This document shows positions 1,809 to 8,839 of a DNA stretch of 8,881 bases, piece by piece; positions within the stretch are counted from its first letter, which is position 1, and each line of letters begins with the position of its first letter. Below the pieces are notes generated by a model, which had not been told where the DNA came from, searched no databases, and saw only the letters and a program-made list of their open reading frames with translations. Made by a program: the position numbers and the translations under genes. Origin of the DNA: a virus (taxonomy: Duplodnaviria; Heunggongvirae; Uroviricota; Caudoviricetes); IMG/VR virus record IMGVR_UViG_2700989170_000005, one strand, 5' to 3'.

Positions 1809-2837
1809 TTATTTCACCTGCACCACCACAAACTCATCCGGATCCGGCAGCACCATCAGCGGCGCGGACTGCGTCATGGTGAATTCACGCGCCGGATCAC
1901 CCACGGTCAGCCAGTGTTTCGGATAACGGGAAGACGCCACCACGCCTTCAGACAATGCCTGCGCATCCTGAATGGAACCGTAGCAACGAATACCCTCTGC
2001 GGCCGTATTTCCCAGTACCAGTGTGCCGTCCGGCAGATAACGTTTTTCGGTACCGTCCTCTGCCACATAGGACGTTTTTGCCACCACGATTGCCAGATCA
2101 CCATAATACCCTTTGAAGGACACCACCGCCCCCAGGTCTTTCACTGCCGTTTCCAGCTGTGAATTTGAGCCACGACGGGTATCCAGTTTTTCGCGGAACA
2201 GCTTAAAGCCATTCAGCAGACGCCAGACCTTACCATCCATAATGGCAATATTGATGGTGCCGGAAGCAAAATCACAGTACGCATCCAGATCATGCGTCGG
2301 ATCAAAGGTATCGCGGTCCTGAGCGCTCCACTCCGTCCCTCCTGCCTGCGTAATGTTATTTCCCACCGACCGGCCAAAATCGACCTCAACAGTTTCAAAC
2401 TGCTCTCCTTCCATGGTGTATTTGCCATACAGCACGGCATTCACCGCCTGCATCTCTTCCACCTGGACAATGGCGTGCTCTTCCTGTTTGAGGTTATCGG
2501 TGATGATACGCAGGCGACGGTAAGCCGGGCCGTTCAGCTGGGCCGGATCTTCACCGGGAAGACGCTCCACCGCCTGCTGGTAATTAAATTCGTGTTTCGG
2601 CTTAACGTAGCCCGGGCGCAGTACACGAGTTTCACCGCCACGGTGACGCAACACCTTTCCTTCAACAACCGGGGAGACATAGGCCGCCACCGGCGTTTTT
2701 CCGGTAATTTTGTCCAGCATTACCTCTTCGGTATGGAAATTCACCGTACGGCGGAAAAACAGCTCCAGAAACAGCGCACGAAATTTAACTTTTTGTTCGG
2801 TATAACCGAGTAACTGGCGGGTCGTAAACAATCCCAT
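1809..2837 (-). CDS. E: Major capsid protein (lambda gpE-like), 342 aa
   Basis: ORF 1809..2837 on minus strand. Long colinear match to lambda gpE (341 aa), e.g. PGYVKPKHE, AIVQVEEMQAV.AVL.GKYTM.GE.F..VEVD.GRS..NNITQ.GGTEWS, KLDTRRGSNS.LETAVKDLG, REFTM.QSAPLM.L.DPDEF. ATG at 2835-2837 with AAGGAA 8 nt upstream. Confidence 0.95.
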   Translation of the reverse strand: MGLFTTRQLLGYTEQKVKFRALFLELFFRRTVNFHTEEVMLDKITGKTPVAAYVSPVVEGKVLRHRGGETRVLRPGYVKPKHEFNYQQAVERLPGEDPAQLNGPAYRRLRIITDNLKQEEHAIVQVEEMQAVNAVLYGKYTMEGEQFETVEVDFGRSVGNNITQAGGTEWSAQDRDTFDPTHDLDAYCDFASGTINIAIMDGKVWRLLNGFKLFREKLDTRRGSNSQLETAVKDLGAVVSFKGYYGDLAIVVAKTSYVAEDGTEKRYLPDGTLVLGNTAAEGIRCYGSIQDAQALSEGVVASSRYPKHWLTVGDPAREFTMTQSAPLMVLPDPDEFVVVQVK

Positions 2838-3278: not shown

Positions 3279-3947
3279 TCATGGCATGGCCATGAGCATT
3301 TTCACGTCCGCATCACCGTCTGCTGACGTCTGTGGCACGCCACCCTGTACCGCTGCCGGTGAATGGTTCGCCATGNNNNNNNNNNNNNNNNNNNNNNNNN
3401 NNNNNNNNNNNNNNNNNNNNNNNNNNNNNNNNNNNNNNNNNNNNNNNNNNNNNNNNNNNNNNNNNNNNNNNNNNNNNNNNNNNNNNNNNNNNNNNNNNNN
3501 NNNNNNNNNNNNNNNNNNNNNNNNNNNNNNNNNNNNNNNNNNNNNNNNNNNNTTTTCAGCCTGCGCCTCTGCCCCTTTTGCCTCATCCAGGGCCATAATC
3601 TGATCACGAAGTGAGGGTCCGGCATTCGCCTGCGGTGAAGCAGCCAGAATCGGACGGGCTTTTTCCACCGTCATCTCCGGCATCGCCGCCAGCGTTGCCG
3701 CCAGTTGTTCACGTCCTTTCGCCTCTTCACATGCCATAATGCGATCGGCTTCACTCTGCGCAGATACACCAGATTGTTGCGGTGCCGCCACGGCCAGAAT
3801 CGCCCGGGCCTGCTCAACGCTCATACCCTGTTGCCCTGCCAGCATCGTGGCCAGTTGTTCACGTCCTTTCGCTTCCTGACACGTCAGGATCCCCATCACT
3901 CGCTGGTTCTCCTGCGCGGCAGCCTCCGTTGCAGTTAATTGCGGCAT
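3279..3947 (-). CDS. nu3: Nested in-frame scaffolding protein (lambda Nu3-like), initiating internally in C at ATG 3945-3947; spans the assembly gap
   Basis: In-frame ATG at 3945-3947 (C residue 302, ..GGTMPQLTATE..) is preceded by a strong AGGAGG Shine-Dalgarno with a 4-nt spacer (minus strand ACAGGAGGCACTATG). This matches the lambda arrangement, where Nu3 is translated from an internal start in the C frame (..GGRMTKETQ..). Downstream sequence is the repeated helical scaffold-like motif. Confidence 0.5.
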   Translation of the reverse strand: MPQLTATEAAAQENQRVMGILTCQEAKGREQLATMLAGQQGMSVEQARAILAVAAPQQSGVSAQSEADRIMACEEAKGREQLAATLAAMPEMTVEKARPILAASPQANAGPSLRDQIMALDEAKGAEAQAEXXXXXXXXXXXXXXXXXXXXXXXXXXXXXXXXXXXXXXXXXXXXXXXXXXXXXXXXXXXXMANHSPAAVQGGVPQTSADGDADVKMLMAMP

Positions 3948-4850
3948 AGTGCCTCCTGTATCGTGTGTGTTCAGCGTCGCAGCCATCACGCTGATGGCGT
4001 CCGACGCATTGATTAATTCATCCGCCAGTTCGGCCTCAATACCGGACTGACCTTCAAAAACGGCGGCCTCTGTTCCCATAACCGCATCCACAGATAAACC
4101 GGTATACATCGCCACTTTTTCAGCAAACATCCGGCGCGCCGCATCAATGCGCTGCTGCATGTCCTGGCGAACCTTTGCTGGCAGGGATTCAAACTGATTG
4201 CCATCCACCTTGTGCGATCCGGCGTAAATCAGCGTGATATCCACACCGGCCTGTGCCAGATGACCGGCATAGCTGACATGGCCCATCATCACCCCAATGG
4301 AGCCGATACGGGATGTCTGGGTAACCAGCCGTCGGGAGCAGGCCGATGCCAGTAACATGGCGGCTGAACAGGCCGTGTCATTGCACAGTGCCCAGACAGG
4401 CTTCAGCTGCCGGAGACGGTAAATCATGTCAGCGCAGTCAAACGCGCCGGTGGCCTGCCCGCCAGAACTGTCAATGTCCAGCAGTACGCCCCGTACCTGA
4501 GTGTCCGCCATTGCCTGCTGAAGACAGGCGACAATGCCGTCATAGCCAGTCATTCCGGAAAATGGCCGCATGCCACCCAGCCGGTGTACCAGCGTGCCGG
4601 TCACCGGCAGTACAGCAATACCGTTCACCACCCGGTAAACACGGGCAGGTCGTTTGCCTCCGGCCATGTACTCGTCCGTTTCAGCCAGCATCCCGGGAGC
4701 GTCAAGCTGTACCTGCTGTTGCGGTACCGAAAGGCTTGCTGCGCCCATCTCACGCCCGAGCGCGCAAAAGAAAACCCGCGCATAGGCGGGCTCCAGAAGC
4801 AGCGGCTCATTGAATGCCGCAGCGATAATATGTGAAAGATTACGTCTCAC
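3279..4850 (-). CDS. C: Prohead protease / scaffold fusion (lambda gpC-like, S49/ClpP-type protease N-terminal domain), interrupted by an assembly gap; GTG start; true length unknown
   Basis: Minus-strand frame open from GTG 4848-4850 (GGAGA/GAGGAG Shine-Dalgarno upstream) to TGA 3279-3281, reading through the N run. N-terminal 300 aa are colinear with lambda gpC: AFNEPL.LEPAYARVFFCAL, NGIAVLPV.GTLV, SGMTGY.GI...QQA, GAFDCAD.I.R.R..KPVWAL.ND..CSA..LLASA.SRRLVTQT.R.GSIGVMM.H, ITLIY.GSHKVDGN, MFA.KV..YTGLSV, EAAV..GQ..I.A.LADEL.N..DAI.VM. The 5' end overlaps the portal 3' end as in lambda. Confidence 0.85.
   Translation of the reverse strand: MRRNLSHIIAAAFNEPLLLEPAYARVFFCALGREMGAASLSVPQQQVQLDAPGMLAETDEYMAGGKRPARVYRVVNGIAVLPVTGTLVHRLGGMRPFSGMTGYDGIVACLQQAMADTQVRGVLLDIDSSGGQATGAFDCADMIYRLRQLKPVWALCNDTACSAAMLLASACSRRLVTQTSRIGSIGVMMGHVSYAGHLAQAGVDITLIYAGSHKVDGNQFESLPAKVRQDMQQRIDAARRMFAEKVAMYTGLSVDAVMGTEAAVFEGQSGIEAELADELINASDAISVMAATLNTHDTGGTMPQLTATEAAAQENQRVMGILTCQEAKGREQLATMLAGQQGMSVEQARAILAVAAPQQSGVSAQSEADRIMACEEAKGREQLAATLAAMPEMTVEKARPILAASPQANAGPSLRDQIMALDEAKGAEAQAEXXXXXXXXXXXXXXXXXXXXXXXXXXXXXXXXXXXXXXXXXXXXXXXXXXXXXXXXXXXXMANHSPAAVQGGVPQTSADGDADVKMLMAMP
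3376..3552. other. Assembly gap: run of 177 N
   Basis: Directly visible as 177 consecutive n characters, located inside the C/nu3 coding region immediately 3' (in gene orientation) of the tandem repeat array. Confidence 0.99.
3555..3917 (-). repeat. Imperfect tandem repeats, period about 141-150 bp, at least 3 copies, inside C/nu3; each encodes a ..R.MG/A....EAKGREQLA..LA...M.VE.AR.ILA..PQ.. unit
   Basis: A perfect 23-nt direct repeat gccagttgttcacgtcctttcgc occurs at 3700-3722 and 3850-3872 (period 150). A third, diverged copy at about 3560-3600 (gccccttttgcctcatccagggccataatc) abuts the N run. Protein-level copies: ENQRVMGILTCQEAKGREQLATMLAGQQGMSVEQARAILAVAAPQQ / SEADRIMACEEAKGREQLAATLAAMPEMTVEKARPILAASPQ / SLRDQIMALDEAKGAEAQAE-[gap]. 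Confidence 0.8.
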
Positions 4851-6433
4851 GTGATGTTGTCTCCTCTTCCGGCCTGCGACTCTCCGCTATCTGCTGCTGA
4901 TACGCCTGGGCTATCCACACCGGACGTGAGAGTCCGGCTTTTTCGCGCTCTGCGGATTCCCTGACCTGCTGGCGGAAAATGTCCTGATAATCTTCGCCCA
5001 TCAGTGCCAGTTCTTTCTCATACGTGCTCAGTCCGGCCTCAATGCGCATCACCGATTCCTGGACCTCCTTGAGCCCGTCAATGGCCATTCTTCCGGAGCT
5101 AATCCACTCTGCCCGTGACCAGGCTGAACGCGCCTGGTAAAAATCAAAACGCGCCCGTGGCGGACGAATAATCCCCCGAAGAAGCGCCTCTTCCAGCCAG
5201 CAGGAAAACATCTGCGTGGCCAGCCGGGCCGCAATAAATTTTCGCCGCCCCATAAAATAGCGCCACGACTCATTGGCGGAGGCGCGGGCACTTGAGTAAC
5301 TGACCTTCGAGTAATCACGGGACAACTGTTCGTAGGAAACGCCAAGACCGGCTGCAATATACCGCAGCAGCGCCTGTTCAAGCGCCGAAAATCCATTGTC
5401 TGAATCCTGCGCTGTCTGCAGGTTCAGCGCATCGCCAGGAAAAAAGGTGCGGAATTTTAACACCGCCCAGCGTCACGTTATTCGTGTCATACCAGCGGGT
5501 GAACTTCTCCAGAATATTAATAAGCGGATTATCCTGCTGACCTTGCGGTGCCCCCGCGATATATTCAAATGCCTTTTCGGTATCAAGTTCACTTTCGATT
5601 GTGGCTGCATACATCGCCTTCACAATGGCCGACTGAAGCTGCGTGGCCTGCAGGGAGTCCAGCATCTTCATCCGCTCCATTACGCTGTAAAACTGATTAG
5701 CCCCACGGGTCTGCCCGTCCTCCACCGGCTCAAAAATATGCAGCATGGCCGGACGCCCGGTGGGAAGCTCACGCGGGATCCGCTCCCAGCGTCCGGCACC
5801 AGAGAACGGAAAATCATCCTCACAGATATGGTACGCAATCGCCCGCCCATACCGATCGACCTCAACCCCGGCCCGCAGAAAGTGGTTCCCCATACCGTGT
5901 CCTGGCGTGTCCACCCGTTTCGGACTCACGGCTTTAAAACGCGTACGGAATAACTGCGTGGTTTCCGTATCCCAGACCGGCTGCACAAAGATTTCGCCGT
6001 TAAAGGCATGCACGCCCACCCCTTCACGGATAAATTCCGTAAACGTGCGTTTCCCTTCCACGTCGATCTCGCCAAACATTCCTTCTGCGTATTCCGACCA
6101 GGCTGCTTCCACCTCCCCGACAAAACTTTTTGCCGTGGTCTCCCGCATCCCCAGCCAACGCCAGTTCAGACGGTAGCTGATAAGAAACATGTGCCCGACG
6201 ATATGATCCTTATGCAGGGCCACCGCATTAGCCGCGATACCGTTATTGCGCACCAGATCATCTGCCCGGGCATTCCCCAGACGCAATGCAGGCAACAGGG
6301 CCGCATCGGCACTCTGCGCCGGTGGTAACCACTCTGCCATTTGCCCGCCAAATCCTGCGCCGCCTCCGTTGTAGCTGAGACTCTCACGAAGCGGAACGCC
6401 GTTCACATCAATCAGGACAGGCGTTCGTTTCAT
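4840..6433 (-). CDS. B: Portal protein (lambda gpB-like), about 530 aa if one base is removed from the A6/T6 run at 5440-5445; as given, split by a +1 frameshift into ORFs 5378..6433 and 4840..5463
   Basis: N-terminal ORF (351 aa) and C-terminal ORF (207 aa) are both colinear with lambda gpB (533 aa): GGG.GFGGQ, DAALLP....GNARADDLVRNNG.AANA..LH.DHIVG, PRELP.GR....H.FEPVEDGQTRGAN.FYSVME.MKMLD.LQ.TQLQSAIVKAMYAATIESELDT, then PGD.LNLQTAQD.DNG.S..EQ.LLRYIAAGLGVSYEQLSR.Y...SYS.ARASANESW.YFMGRRKF, SGRMAIDGLKEVQE.VM.IEAGLSTYEKE. The frames switch at ..GGVKIPHLF | (F)PGDALNLQ.. (lambda: GGAKVPHLMPGDSLNLQ). ATG at 6431-6433 overlaps the W stop (ATGA). Confidence 0.9.
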
Positions 6434-6633
6434 AACCTCACTCCCAGCGGTCGGCGGCGTCGGGTCGTACCCAGAACCGACTCCGCATCGTTGATCGCAC
6501 GGTTAAGCTCATTCAGGGACGCTGCCGTATATTCGATCCTGCGACCGTCTTTCTGTACCGACACAACCCGTTTACCGGTTAATAAATCAAGGCGCGCCTG
6601 ACGCAGCGCCTGCAGTTCAGCGACTGTAACCAT
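6430..6633 (-). CDS. W: Head-tail joining / head completion protein (lambda gpW-like), 67 aa
   Basis: ORF 6430..6633 on minus strand. L.LLTGKRV..VQKDGRR.E.TA.S...L...I is colinear with lambda gpW (68 aa, ..[26 protein letters not shown]..). ATG at 6631-6633 directly follows the A stop TGA (6634-6636); the GGAGGAG in the last A codons serves as Shine-Dalgarno. Confidence 0.9.
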   Translation of the reverse strand: MVTVAELQALRQARLDLLTGKRVVSVQKDGRRIEYTAASLNELNRAINDAESVLGTTRRRRPLGVRL

Positions 6634-8544
6634 TCACTCCTCCGGACAGCTTCGCTGCCAGTTCTTCAAGGGTCGGTTGTGCAGTTGCATCCTTGCGGGA
6701 TGCAACTGCACAGCCAGATCAAGTTGCCAGCGTTGCACGGACACACGTAATGCCGCATAGGCATACACCAGGCAGTCCAGCGCTTCGTTACGCCGCTTTT
6801 TGTTATCCCACAACAGACGCATCTTTCCTTTTTCCCACTTTTCCACCAGTTCCTCCGCCACCAGTTGTTGTGCCTCTGTCTGCGAAAAAATCTCCGGATT
6901 ATCAGGAAAGCGGATGGCATACGATGTGGCCTCATTCACAGGGGTGGGATCGGCCTTCATTCGGGCATAGAGAATTTCTTTTGCGGTATCCGTCCCCACC
7001 TCACACAGATACACACCCCGCTGATTGCGGGTTTTCGGCATGGTGATCACCGGCTTGCCATAGACAGAGGCACCTTTTACCGGCAGTACCCGGAAAATAC
7101 CGTGTTTTTTTGACCTCTGATACACGATTTCGCCATCGATCCCCCCGATATCCCAGCAGACACGGGAAATGGTCATTTCGGTACCGTCTGCATGGCGGTA
7201 TTTTTTATTGATCGCCGCATCCACACGTAACAGCGTCTCTTCCTCATCAGGACGTCCCATGATGATGATTTTATCCACCAGAAAGGCTTCCTCTCCCGGA
7301 GCCCACCCCCAGACATACATCTCAAAACGGTTTCGCTGCGAGTCAATGCCCGCCGTCAGATAAACCACCCGGACAGGCACCGTTGCCGTGTAAGGCACAA
7401 CCTTATCCATCAGTACCTGGTGATCGAGTTTTTCGCCCACGGCCTCTTCCCAGGTCTCGCCCAGCGTGGTGTTCACAAAAGTTTTCACGCCGTTGGGATC
7501 TTTCAGTGCATCCAGCCAGTCACAGACTATCTGTACCCTGGTGGTGAACGGACTGTACGCCGTCCATATATGGAAAGTGATGGAGCGCGGCGGCGGAATT
7601 TCATTACCCGAAGCACTGAAAAACGTCAGACCGTCACACGTCCACATCCCGGTATTGTCACAAATCCAGCGCCCCCCGGTCTGATCAAGTTCAGACTGAC
7701 GGATCACGCAGCCATTATGTTCACACAGGTAATACACCGTTTCCGGTTTACCCTTCTCCCATTTCAGGCCAAACGACGTCGCATCATCGCCAAACTTCAG
7801 ATACTGCTCCTCCCCGCAATGAGGGCAAGGGACATAAAACCGCATGAAATGCGCAGATTCATTCGCAGCTTTTTCAATCTGACAGGAGCCTTTAATTTTT
7901 GGCGTTGAACCGCGTATGGATTTTGGCCATACCGAACCTTCAATACGTTTATCGCCAAGCAGTGTTGGCGAACCTTCTTTTTCCACATCCGGTTCAAACG
8001 AGGAGAGTTCGTCATAGCAGACCACATCGACAGATTTTTCACGGTAGTTTTTGGCAGCAGCACCACCCAAACACCAGAACCCCACACCAGAGGAAAAACG
8101 CTTCAGTGTGAGCGTATTATCCCGGTGTTTCCGGCCCAGCCAGGGAGAAAGTTTTTTCAGGCAAGGAACATCACGAATTGTTGCTTCCACGTGAGACTTC
8201 ATAAAATCTTCAGCAGCTGAGTCCGTCGGCTGAAAAAGAAGAGTGTTGCGGGATTTGTGCTCAATAAAATACCCGATCACACCAAGCACCATTTTTGTAT
8301 AACCAACACGGGCAGATTTAATCAGGTTAACTGTACGAATCTCGTCATTGCCCATGCAGTTCATGATGGCGACCTGAAACTGCAGCGTTTTCCATTCCCC
8401 CTCACCGTATGACGATTCTTTAGGCAGGTAATAATTTTGATCGGCCCATTCTACAGCCGTCACCGGCAATACCCTGACCAGTGGCTGCAGTGCGATAGTG
8501 ACTGCCACCATCATATTACTCAGTTGTTGTTCTGATATATTCAT
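6634..8544 (-). CDS. A: Terminase large subunit (lambda gpA-like), 636 aa from ATG at 8542-8544
   Basis: Minus-strand ORF. The track starts it at TTG 8601, but ATG 8542-8544 yields MNISEQQ.., matching the lambda gpA N-terminus MNISNSQ... Extensive colinear identity follows: TAVEWAD.NYYLPKES.Y.EG.W.TL.FQ.AIMN.MG.D.IR.VN..KSARVGY.KM.LGV..YFIEHK.RNTL, HRDNTLT.KRF..G.GFWCLGG.AAKNYREKSVDV..YDEL, SPT.LGDKRIEGSVWPKSIRGSTPK, HFMRF.V.CPHCGEEQYLKFGD, FYLCEHN.CVIRQ.ELD, TFHIWTAYSPFT, KTFVNTTLGETWE, YLTAGIDSQ, RSKKHG.FRV.P.KGASVYGKPV, TDTAKE, EAQQL.AEE.VEKW, DSKKRRNEALDC.VYA.AALR.S..RWQLDL. Confidence 0.95.
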   Translation of the reverse strand: MNISEQQLSNMMVAVTIALQPLVRVLPVTAVEWADQNYYLPKESSYGEGEWKTLQFQVAIMNCMGNDEIRTVNLIKSARVGYTKMVLGVIGYFIEHKSRNTLLFQPTDSAAEDFMKSHVEATIRDVPCLKKLSPWLGRKHRDNTLTLKRFSSGVGFWCLGGAAAKNYREKSVDVVCYDELSSFEPDVEKEGSPTLLGDKRIEGSVWPKSIRGSTPKIKGSCQIEKAANESAHFMRFYVPCPHCGEEQYLKFGDDATSFGLKWEKGKPETVYYLCEHNGCVIRQSELDQTGGRWICDNTGMWTCDGLTFFSASGNEIPPPRSITFHIWTAYSPFTTRVQIVCDWLDALKDPNGVKTFVNTTLGETWEEAVGEKLDHQVLMDKVVPYTATVPVRVVYLTAGIDSQRNRFEMYVWGWAPGEEAFLVDKIIIMGRPDEEETLLRVDAAINKKYRHADGTEMTISRVCWDIGGIDGEIVYQRSKKHGIFRVLPVKGASVYGKPVITMPKTRNQRGVYLCEVGTDTAKEILYARMKADPTPVNEATSYAIRFPDNPEIFSQTEAQQLVAEELVEKWEKGKMRLLWDNKKRRNEALDCLVYAYAALRVSVQRWQLDLAVQLHPARMQLHNRPLKNWQRSCPEE

Positions 8545-8839
8545 CGAGTAAATCCGGTAATTTATCCCCCGCACGCGCGCACTGATTCGCTCCCTTAGCA
8601 ATAAGGATTTTCAGATGATCAATATGACGCGGCGTTAAATCCGGGAACTGTCGTTGCATGGACAAAGGAATGGAGTCAAGCGTACTGGATAAAGCCATCG
8701 CCAGCTTACTAAGGGCAAAAATACAAAATCCGGTATCGATAAGATTTCCTTTTGACACCTGATTTTTTAACTGCTGTGCGACAGCCTGTTCTGCGGTCAG
8801 TTCCCATCTGGCAATGAGTAGTTTGAGGTGTACTGGCAA
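8516..8839 (-). CDS. nu1: Terminase small subunit (lambda Nu1-like), C-terminal terminase-interaction portion only (about 98 conserved aa); no credible start codon in the window; 5' part apparently out of frame or missing
   Basis: Minus-strand frame 8516..8839 translates to ..RWELTAEQAVAQQLKNQ.......TGFCIFALSKLA..L.S.LD.IPLS.QR.FP.L..RH.D.LK..I.K......A..D.L..LL.EYI, colinear with the C-terminal half of lambda Nu1 (..RHRLTRAQADAQELKNAR...ETAFCTFVLSRIAGEIASILDGLPLSVQRRFPELENRHVDFLKRDIIKAMNKAAALDELIPGLLSEYIEQSG). The stop TGA at 8516-8518 overlaps the 5' end of A by 29 nt, as Nu1/A overlap in lambda. The track's start is a TTG without Shine-Dalgarno; in-frame stops at 8849-8851 and 8867-8869 close the frame upstream. 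Confidence 0.7.
   Translation of the reverse strand: MPVHLKLLIARWELTAEQAVAQQLKNQVSKGNLIDTGFCIFALSKLAMALSSTLDSIPLSMQRQFPDLTPRHIDHLKILIAKGANQCARAGDKLPDLLDEYIRTTTE

Follow-up and report, generated by a model that had tools for sequence, protein, structure and literature searches.

Tri-box triplication in the protease/scaffold gene of a phage 21-type prophage: an old, selected, and labile array of candidate contact modules

Introduction

The scaffolding protein of phage P22 has a C-terminal helix-turn-helix domain that binds the coat protein, and the scaffold is removed after assembly. The coat-binding module is present in a single copy, and no protease is fused to it. For the scaffold Nu3 of phage λ, Nu3-B, Nu3-C, and Nu3-Nu3 interactions have been described, as well as Nu3-E by two-hybrid analysis (PMC3224144).

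The closest described relative of the gene analyzed here belongs to phage 21. The paper behind the phage 21 head genes is reportedly one by Smith and Feiss in Gene, 1993. In the head operon record (M81255.1), the internal ribosome-binding site and start of gene 6 lie nested within gene 5, and gene 6 contains three repeat regions named “Tri1 box,” “Tri box,” and “Tri3 box.” The annotation of these boxes reads “function unknown; putative,” and the start of gene 6 (gp6) is likewise labeled putative. The complete phage 21 genome (OL657228.1) annotates the pair as capsid protease/scaffolding protein and scaffolding protein.

Here, we analyze a tandem array in the corresponding gene of a draft genome. 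In our judgment, it is very probably the Tri-box triplication of a 21-type prophage in an Escherichia/Shigella draft genome, an old, selected, and labile array with a unit that would act as a contact module of the scaffold.

Results

A lambdoid head gene cluster

The window, meaning the whole stretch of DNA that was analyzed, is an entire draft contig of 8,881 bp (NCBI GCA_000566425.1, AZQA01000199.1). A six-frame list of open reading frames revealed a lambdoid head gene cluster, all on the minus strand.

6634-8601, minus strand: large terminase
6430-6633, minus strand: gpW
4840-6433, minus strand: portal, split in two open reading frames
3279-4850, minus strand: S49 prohead protease gene whose C-terminal part is a scaffold domain; homologous to λ C and to gene 5 of phage 21
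2895-3242, minus strand: decoration protein
1809-2837, minus strand: major capsid protein
FI, FII, Z, and U, minus strand: further genes of the cluster

The open reading frames and the Pfam labels of the contig neighbors give the order terminase, W, portal, C/Nu3, D/shp, and capsid protein E, which agrees with phage 21 and λ. The portal gene has a +1 frameshift in a run of T, and Pro129 of the protease, in a DSPGG motif that is otherwise invariant, is changed to Ser. Because of these two changes, the prophage copy in the window is probably defective, and if so, the array here may no longer function.

The protease domain and the nested scaffold start

The protein encoded at 3279-4850 matches Pfam Peptidase_S49 (E = 3.7e-35) and the head maturation protease family phrog_53 (E = 9e-221). 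Positions 77-296 of the family profile match the SppA structures 3rst and 4kwb (E about 3e-22), and Pfam PF01343 spans residues 146-293 of the window protein. Ser162 aligns with the Ser of the SppA AASGG segment, which we take to be the catalytic serine; the Pfam match and the SppA profile alignment together identify an S49 domain in which this residue is conserved. The features of the gene are as follows.

3963-4622, minus strand: S49 (SppA-like) protease domain, residues 77-296, placed by the family profile against SppA structures
3945-3957, minus strand: internal Shine-Dalgarno AGGAGG (3952-3957) and in-frame ATG (3945-3947), read from the sequence
3756-3908, minus strand: repeat unit 1, residues 315-365, NQRVMGILTCQEAKGREQLATMLAGQQGMSVEQARAILAVAAPQQSGVSAQ; unit HMM 97 bits; Tri1 box of M81255.1
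3615-3755, minus strand: repeat unit 2, residues 366-412, SEADRIMACEEAKGREQLAATLAAMPEMTVEKARPILAASPQANAGP; unit HMM 82 bits; “Tri box” of M81255.1
3555-3614, minus strand: repeat unit 3, first 20 residues only, SLRDQIMALDEAKGAEAQAE; Tri3 box of M81255.1
3376-3552, no strand: run of 177 N, an assembly gap that is also in the deposited contig AZQA01000199.1
3282-3374, minus strand: C-terminal tail past the gap, MANHSPAAVQGGVPQTSADGDADVKMLMAMP; stop codon at 3279-3281
3850-3872, plus strand: 23-nt perfect repeat, copy A, antisense to the (E)AKGREQLA codons of unit 1
3700-3722, plus strand: 23-nt perfect repeat, copy B, antisense to the (E)AKGREQLA codons of unit 2

The internal site (AGGAGG, 4 nt, ATG) lies just upstream of unit 1 and corresponds to the annotated ribosome-binding site and gene 6 start in both M81255.1 and OL657228.1. 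The ATG at 3947 is thus the putative start of a Nu3/gp6-like scaffold protein with all three units. Since this start precedes the array, the three units would be present in both the full-length protease and the nested scaffold protein.

The assembly gap and the true length of the gene

The protease/scaffold gene is interrupted by the assembly gap, and the deposited gene call ends at the N run. We sized the gap by comparing 2.5-kb flanks on each side of the gene with complete genomes. The flanks match Escherichia coli ECMA0423 and Shigella flexneri SFBU1023 (L006 and L007): the 3,798 nt upstream of the gap are 100% identical, and the 2,594 nt downstream of it 99.92%. At the position of the gap, both genomes have 111 nt, not 177. 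The gap is therefore over-sized by 66 nt, and it conceals the latter half of unit 3 together with the first part of a C-terminal stub. In reality, it most likely holds 111 nt that encode (K)LAACPGMTVENARAVLAAASGRAEPVSASTTAMFEHF. With 111 nt at this position in identical genomes, the gene has 501 codons (1,506 nt), as in phage 21.

A preliminary description of this DNA had given the gene at least 523 codons, a value that counts 59 codons of N and is an artefact of the over-sized gap. It had also left room for a further repeat hidden there; the 111 nt hold the remainder of unit 3 and the beginning of the stub, and nothing else. A fourth unit or a 22-codon insertion within the gap is ruled out by the flank match to the complete genomes. 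Gene lengths read across an N run are unreliable when, as here, an over-sized assembly gap has been placed inside a repeat, and repeat-bearing prophage genes are typical break points of draft assemblies.

Anatomy of the repeat array

Exactly two copies of the 23-nt sequence GCCAGTTGTTCACGTCCTTTCGC are present, one at 3700-3722 and the other at 3850-3872. In 200 dinucleotide-preserving shuffles, no such match arose, even with up to 3 mismatches allowed. A repeat search found two longer, diverged pairs: 94 nt at 3643-3736 and 3793-3886 (73% identity, spacing 150) and 32 nt at 3574-3605 and 3715-3746 (75% identity, spacing 141). An offset-identity scan of 3553-3960 peaked at 150 nt (47% identity vs a 27% background, z = 5.2), and the complete sequence from an identical genome gave peaks at 150, 291, and 141 nt. 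At the protein level, the similarity of the three units has z = 13.5-16.9, and none of the 1,000 shuffles run for each comparison reached the observed score. Tandem Repeats Finder gave no report at the 3555-3917 array, whose copies, with less than about 70% similarity, are too diverged for it. The tandem array of diverged units in the Nu3-like C-terminal part, as first described, is therefore real, with the 23-nt repeat, the spacing, and the z scores all far above chance.

Each unit is about 47-51 aa long and follows the pattern I(L/M)xCxEAKGRExLAxxLAxxPGM(T/S)VExAxxILAAAP. Searches with the unit HMM and PHROG profiles recovered this Nu3 core (EAKGRE, then PGMTVE.A..ILAAAP), followed by the stub and the C-terminal tail. 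Within the window, units 1 and 2 are whole, and only the first 20 residues of unit 3 are readable. Unit 3 is visible in full in L006 and L007, and the complete sequence from these genomes shows that the array consists of exactly three units plus the stub. The tail past the gap continues this stub (F-E/D-x-F-M), which resembles the start of a further unit, and the C-terminal ...L-M-x-M-P is conserved in the family alignment.

λ gpC aligns with the window protein along the protease domain and carries the unit only once, as ENSRIMGILNCEEAHGREEQARVLAETPGMTVKTARRILAAAPQS; the stub that comes next, ALDRLMQGAP, also resembles the start of another unit. The alignment and the unit HMM bear out the earlier statement that λ gpC/Nu3 carries essentially one unit, to which the short stub should be added.

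The three units are the Tri boxes of phage 21

A colinear DNA alignment places the three copies in the register of the Tri1, Tri, and Tri3 boxes; for this comparison, the part of unit 3 that the gap hides was supplied by the identical genomes L006 and L007. The unit HMM hits fall at 314-365, 366-413, and 413-462 in phage 21, in protein P0004, and in L006/L007. Close kinship to the phage 21 head module is evident from 92.8% nucleotide identity and from a protease-domain tree in which the window protein groups with 21-type proteins. The repeat is the Tri-box triplication already annotated in phage 21 genes 5/6 and, as such, a known feature.

Distribution and copy number

About 2,000 complete E. 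coli genomes hold a match to the gene (93-97%); in about 1,866 of 5,426, the copy extends over at least 80% of its length. The three-unit, 1,506-nt form accounted for 54 of the 55 full-length best hits sampled from complete E. coli genomes. The preliminary description held that an equal unit number in close relatives would make the array an ordinary family feature. This is the case: the three-unit form is shared by phage 21, by Gifsy-1, and by about 1,866 complete E. coli genomes, roughly one in three, and is thus ordinary within this lineage.

We ran the unit HMM on 80 species-level loci (one genome per species), 71 of which encode complete proteins. One unit was found in 65 of the 71, from Enterobacteriaceae, Vibrio, Photobacterium, Pseudomonas, Marinobacter, and others. 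Among these complete loci, Escherichia/Shigella, E. albertii, Trabulsiella, and Providencia are the only ones with three units, and the Buttiauxella protein contains two. A second protein search added three-unit proteins from Salmonella (including Gifsy-1, 498 aa), Edwardsiella, and Cronobacter, a large 538-aa group with four units from E. coli, Citrobacter, Salmonella, and E. marmotae, and 568- and 578-aa E. coli proteins with five. The copy number in the family thus ranges from 1 to 5. The four-unit form lies in a prophage that combines a λ-like head with contractile-tail genes.

Searching the unit profile against 1.84 billion representative proteins gave 1,327 hits at E ≤ 0.001; among the best 150 of these, 123 have one matching stretch, 22 have two, 4 have three, and 1 has four. 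In a neighbor-joining tree of the protease domain alone, built without bootstrap values, all multi-unit proteins form one clade. The two-unit Buttiauxella protein is the sister of this clade, and the one-unit proteins all lie outside. On these comparisons, one unit is the ancestral state, with two to five units confined to a single clade.

Age of the triplication

Unit 1 of the E. coli protein is 72% and 64% identical to unit 1 of Trabulsiella and Providencia, respectively; the corresponding values are 61% and 66% for unit 2 and 57% and 48% for unit 3. Neighboring units inside the E. coli protein are 41-51% identical. The units of Escherichia, Trabulsiella, and Providencia correspond by position as orthologs. 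Because they are closer to their counterparts in other genera than to their neighbors, the triplication predates the split of these prophage lineages. What had been called an expansion is, by this orthology and the protease-domain tree, not recent but an old triplication that has been stably inherited.

The same data bear on another explanation, in which the array arose by recent expansion in this strain or as an artefact of assembly around the gap. The gap does fall within unit 3 of a contig of only 8.9 kb, and repeats often break short-read assemblies. However, an identical three-unit sequence stands in the two complete genomes L006 and L007, three units are found in phage 21, which has been sequenced twice, as well as in nearly all of the sampled E. 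coli best hits, and the units keep their positions across genera. The flank match to complete genomes, the E. coli sampling, and the cross-genus orthology refute this explanation, and we give it next to no credence.

Selection on the protein and the question of a DNA-level role

The ratio dN/dS is 0.08-0.16 in the repeats vs 0.08-0.19 in the protease domain. By these substitution patterns, purifying selection acts on the array as strongly as on the protease domain. A dN/dS of about 0.1 in the repeats indicates constraint on the protein, not on a DNA signal.

The Tri boxes have also to be considered as cis-acting DNA or RNA elements, such as protein-binding sites, a CII-dependent promoter on the antisense strand, or a signal for translation. 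The label repeat_region and the words “function unknown” in M81255.1 would suit such a role, and two matches to the CII-box pattern TTGYN6TTGY lie antisense to gene 6 in OL657228.1, both of them also in the window. However, two matches compare with 1.6 expected by chance, and Rfam has no match in the window. Differences between orthologous repeats are mostly synonymous (dN/dS about 0.1), the units share only about 73% of their DNA sequence, and the 23-nt stretch itself differs between units 1 and 2 of phage 21. With mostly synonymous substitutions, CII-box matches at the chance level, and no Rfam match, a role at the DNA level is highly improbable.

Natural alleles and instability

Natural alleles have two, about 2.4, four, and five units. 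The two-unit alleles make up 25 protein clusters (451/452 aa) and are in-register deletions with three or more different junctions. In 11 of these clusters (P0095 and 10 more), the junction lies inside EAKGREQLA, exactly the outcome expected from recombination between the two 23-nt copies. Recombination between copies A and B would delete exactly 150 nt. A 482-aa form with a 19-residue deletion is very common, one of its clusters occurring on 1,000 contigs or more; four units are found in 551-aa forms, and longer products are fusions to tail genes with breakpoints within unit 3. One two-unit and one four-unit allele lie in head operons with all neighboring genes at full length. The suggestion in the preliminary description that the array is recombinationally unstable is well borne out by this series of alleles and by the 11 clusters joined within the stretch that the 23-nt repeat encodes.

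Predicted structure of the unit

AlphaFold2 predicts three short helices per unit (pLDDT 70-85) with low-confidence linkers between the units. The model of the whole protein has a mean pLDDT of 64 and a pTM of 0.44, and that of the gp6-like part 60 and 0.26. The prediction suggests a beads-on-a-string arrangement of units. A Foldseek search of the PDB with the gp6-like model, itself of low confidence (pLDDT 60, pTM 0.26), returned no meaningful hit, and we assign no fold because of the low-confidence models and this result. When the PDB was searched by sequence with the scaffold profile, the only matches were designed Ala-rich tandem-repeat proteins, which we judged to be similar in composition, not homologous. 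Pfam has no family for the unit. A helix-hairpin-helix fold was considered and rejected: PF00633 scored 15.2 bits against a cut-off of 24, in one unit only, and just 1 of 26 units matched any helix-hairpin-helix family (E = 0.11). Three matches each were obtained with the PHROG scaffolding and “capsid assembly protein” profiles. The unit is the sole conserved element found in the scaffold part of λ-type gpC/Nu3 proteins.

Alternatively, the unit could be mainly a helical spacer that binds nothing in particular, with the copy number setting only how long a tether joins the protease domain to the true capsid-targeting determinant at the extreme C-terminus. Copy numbers of 1 to 5 in apparently intact head modules fit this reading, as do the length of the linker (75 aa in one-unit vs 35 aa in multi-unit proteins), the low confidence of the predicted packing between units, and the conservation of the C-terminal ...L-M-x-M-P tail. 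However, the unit motif is kept from Vibrio and Pseudomonas to Escherichia and the linkers are not, dN/dS in the repeats (about 0.1) equals that of the protease domain, and invariant G, E, A, and L positions would be unexpected in a pure spacer. We consider a pure spacer quite unlikely.

Discussion

The preferred reading is that the unit serves as a scaffold contact module, one that would bind the major capsid protein, the portal, or other scaffold molecules, in line with the interactions described for λ Nu3. In the phage 21/Gifsy clade, a single unit was duplicated to three, and in a sub-lineage to four or five; unequal recombination in register gives rise to the natural alleles with two, four, or five units. 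Three copies would make a longer, multivalent tether, through which the protease and the scaffold may be co-assembled into the procapsid. The protease would then remove the scaffold and itself from the procapsid. The conserved extreme C-terminal tail could be the capsid-targeting determinant instead of the unit.

A copy number of 1 to 5, which seems to be tolerated, and a linker shorter by 40 aa in multi-unit proteins fit a looser spacer role equally well.

It is conceivable, if rather unlikely, that unit copy number is the tuned valency or reach of Nu3-type scaffolds and not neutral variation in length. The allelic series produced by in-register recombination would then be selected to suit given variants of the capsid protein or the portal or given head-tail combinations, such as the λ-like head with contractile-tail genes in the prophage with the four-unit form. 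If copy-number tuning were true, the natural series would be a tool for studying how a λ-type scaffold contacts the shell. From the comparative picture, the unit emerges as the conserved core of the λ-type scaffold, and the natural allelic series can be used to test how the scaffold engages the capsid and the portal. For the window itself, the result carries little weight, as this allele is the standard phage 21 type of a prophage head gene that is common in E. coli/Shigella.

Comparison with known systems

The gene resembles λ gpC/Nu3 (NC_001416, C at 4418-5737) in joining an S49 protease to a nested scaffold frame, with 57% amino acid identity. The unit motif, the stub after the unit, and the AGGAGG, 4-nt spacer, and ATG at the equivalent codon are all shared. 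Unlike λ, it has three units instead of one and a protein of 501 aa instead of 439 aa, and the low-complexity linker from protease to unit is about 40 aa longer in λ. For phage P22, the likeness would be one of function: its coat-binding domain, a small helical module at the C-terminal end of the scaffold, is a plausible analogue of the unit for capsid binding. The PDB sequence search and the Foldseek search, the latter with a low-confidence model, yielded no match to it, and we claim no membership in a common family.

Gifsy-1 STM2605 and the Salmonella, Edwardsiella, and Cronobacter gpC homologues belong with the window protein to one protease-domain clade with multi-unit arrays. The 538-aa (four-unit) and 568/578-aa (five-unit) proteins of Escherichia, Citrobacter, and Salmonella prophages are in the same clade and share the module with the window. 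In these four- and five-unit proteins and in the three-unit Cronobacter protein P0166, however, the units are 78-84% identical to each other, vs 52% in the window, which argues for recent duplication or homogenization there.

Phage 21 is the nearest of the named systems. The window gene is 92.8% identical in nucleotide sequence to gene 5, is fully syntenic with genes 4, 5/6, shp, and 7, and sits, as in phage 21, between the portal gene (gene 4) and the shp and major capsid genes. Both have three units in equal register, along with the internal ribosome-binding site and ATG. Unlike phage 21, the window allele has scattered, mostly synonymous substitutions, and its units 1 and 2 share a perfect 23 nt where those of phage 21 differ. 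The window copy is further set apart by the Pro129 to Ser change, by the frameshifted portal gene that adjoins it, and by an assembly gap that masks part of unit 3.

Frameshift in the portal gene and state of the prophage

The portal gene (4840-6433, minus strand) carries a +1 frameshift, with six T at window positions 5440-5445 versus five in an intact E. coli copy (L002). The frameshift splits the gene into two open reading frames:

5378-6433, minus strand, portal open reading frame after the frameshift
4840-5463, minus strand, portal open reading frame after the frameshift

Because the identical six-T sequence is also found in two complete genomes that match the window on both sides of the assembly gap, E. 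coli ECMA0423 and Shigella flexneri SFBU1023 (L006 and L007), the frameshift is a genuine mutation. Given this frameshift, the prophage in the window is probably defective.

A second difference lies in the prohead protease (S49) gene, where codon 129 (window 4464-4466), within the DSPGG motif, encodes Ser (TCT) in place of Pro in both the window copy and L007. Pro129 is invariant among the aligned three-unit homologues (71 of 71). The substitution may be another sign of decay, or it may instead be tolerated.

The run of 177 N at window 3376-3552 is a gap already present in the deposited NCBI contig. Judging by the identical complete genomes, it is oversized by 66 nt, as the true sequence spans 111 nt. 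The oversized run happens to preserve the reading frame, and the S49 open reading frame therefore seems 22 codons too long.

Unusual homologues of the repeat-bearing protein

Several proteins that bear the repeat array are abnormally long (P0001, P0006, P0007, and P0170). One, of 657 aa, has an internal duplication of 156 aa running from the end of the protease domain through units 1 to 3, and in those of 577, 610, and 721 aa the protein breaks off within unit 3 and is fused there to sequence from tail-fibre or baseplate genes. These long products suggest that, as prophages decay, the array is a hotspot for rearrangement or deletion; the alternative is that the sequences were misassembled at this site.

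The four-unit protein (P0156, contigs L089 and L090) represents an allele inside a mosaic prophage, whose head genes (Nu1, A, W, portal, C, D, E, FI, and FII) are lambda-like and whose next genes belong to a contractile tail and baseplate (gp25-like, Baseplate_J, and sheath).

Loci near-identical to lambda gpC (L017-L025, L042, L043, L054, and others) were observed on low-coverage contigs of ~48 kb or shorter. The assemblies are labelled Chromatium, Kitasatospora, Neobacillus, Shewanella, an Akkermansia MAG, and others, and these loci are most likely contaminating lambda DNA.

Comparison with lambda and phage 21

At about codon 308 of lambda gene C (NC_001416), AGGAGG is followed after 4 nt by an ATG, and the corresponding codon in phage 21 is the one at which gene 6 starts. 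This site sits 70 codons downstream of the RefSeq-annotated nu3 start (5132), and the start actually used by lambda nu3 may differ from the annotated one.

Matches to the lambda CII-box pattern TTGYN6TTGY are not enriched in the window (2 matches versus 1.6 expected by chance):

3695-3708, plus strand, CII-box pattern match antisense to the gp6-like region
3929-3942, plus strand, CII-box pattern match antisense to the gp6-like region

The complete genome record of phage 21 (OL657228.1) lists both of these sites as bound by CII.
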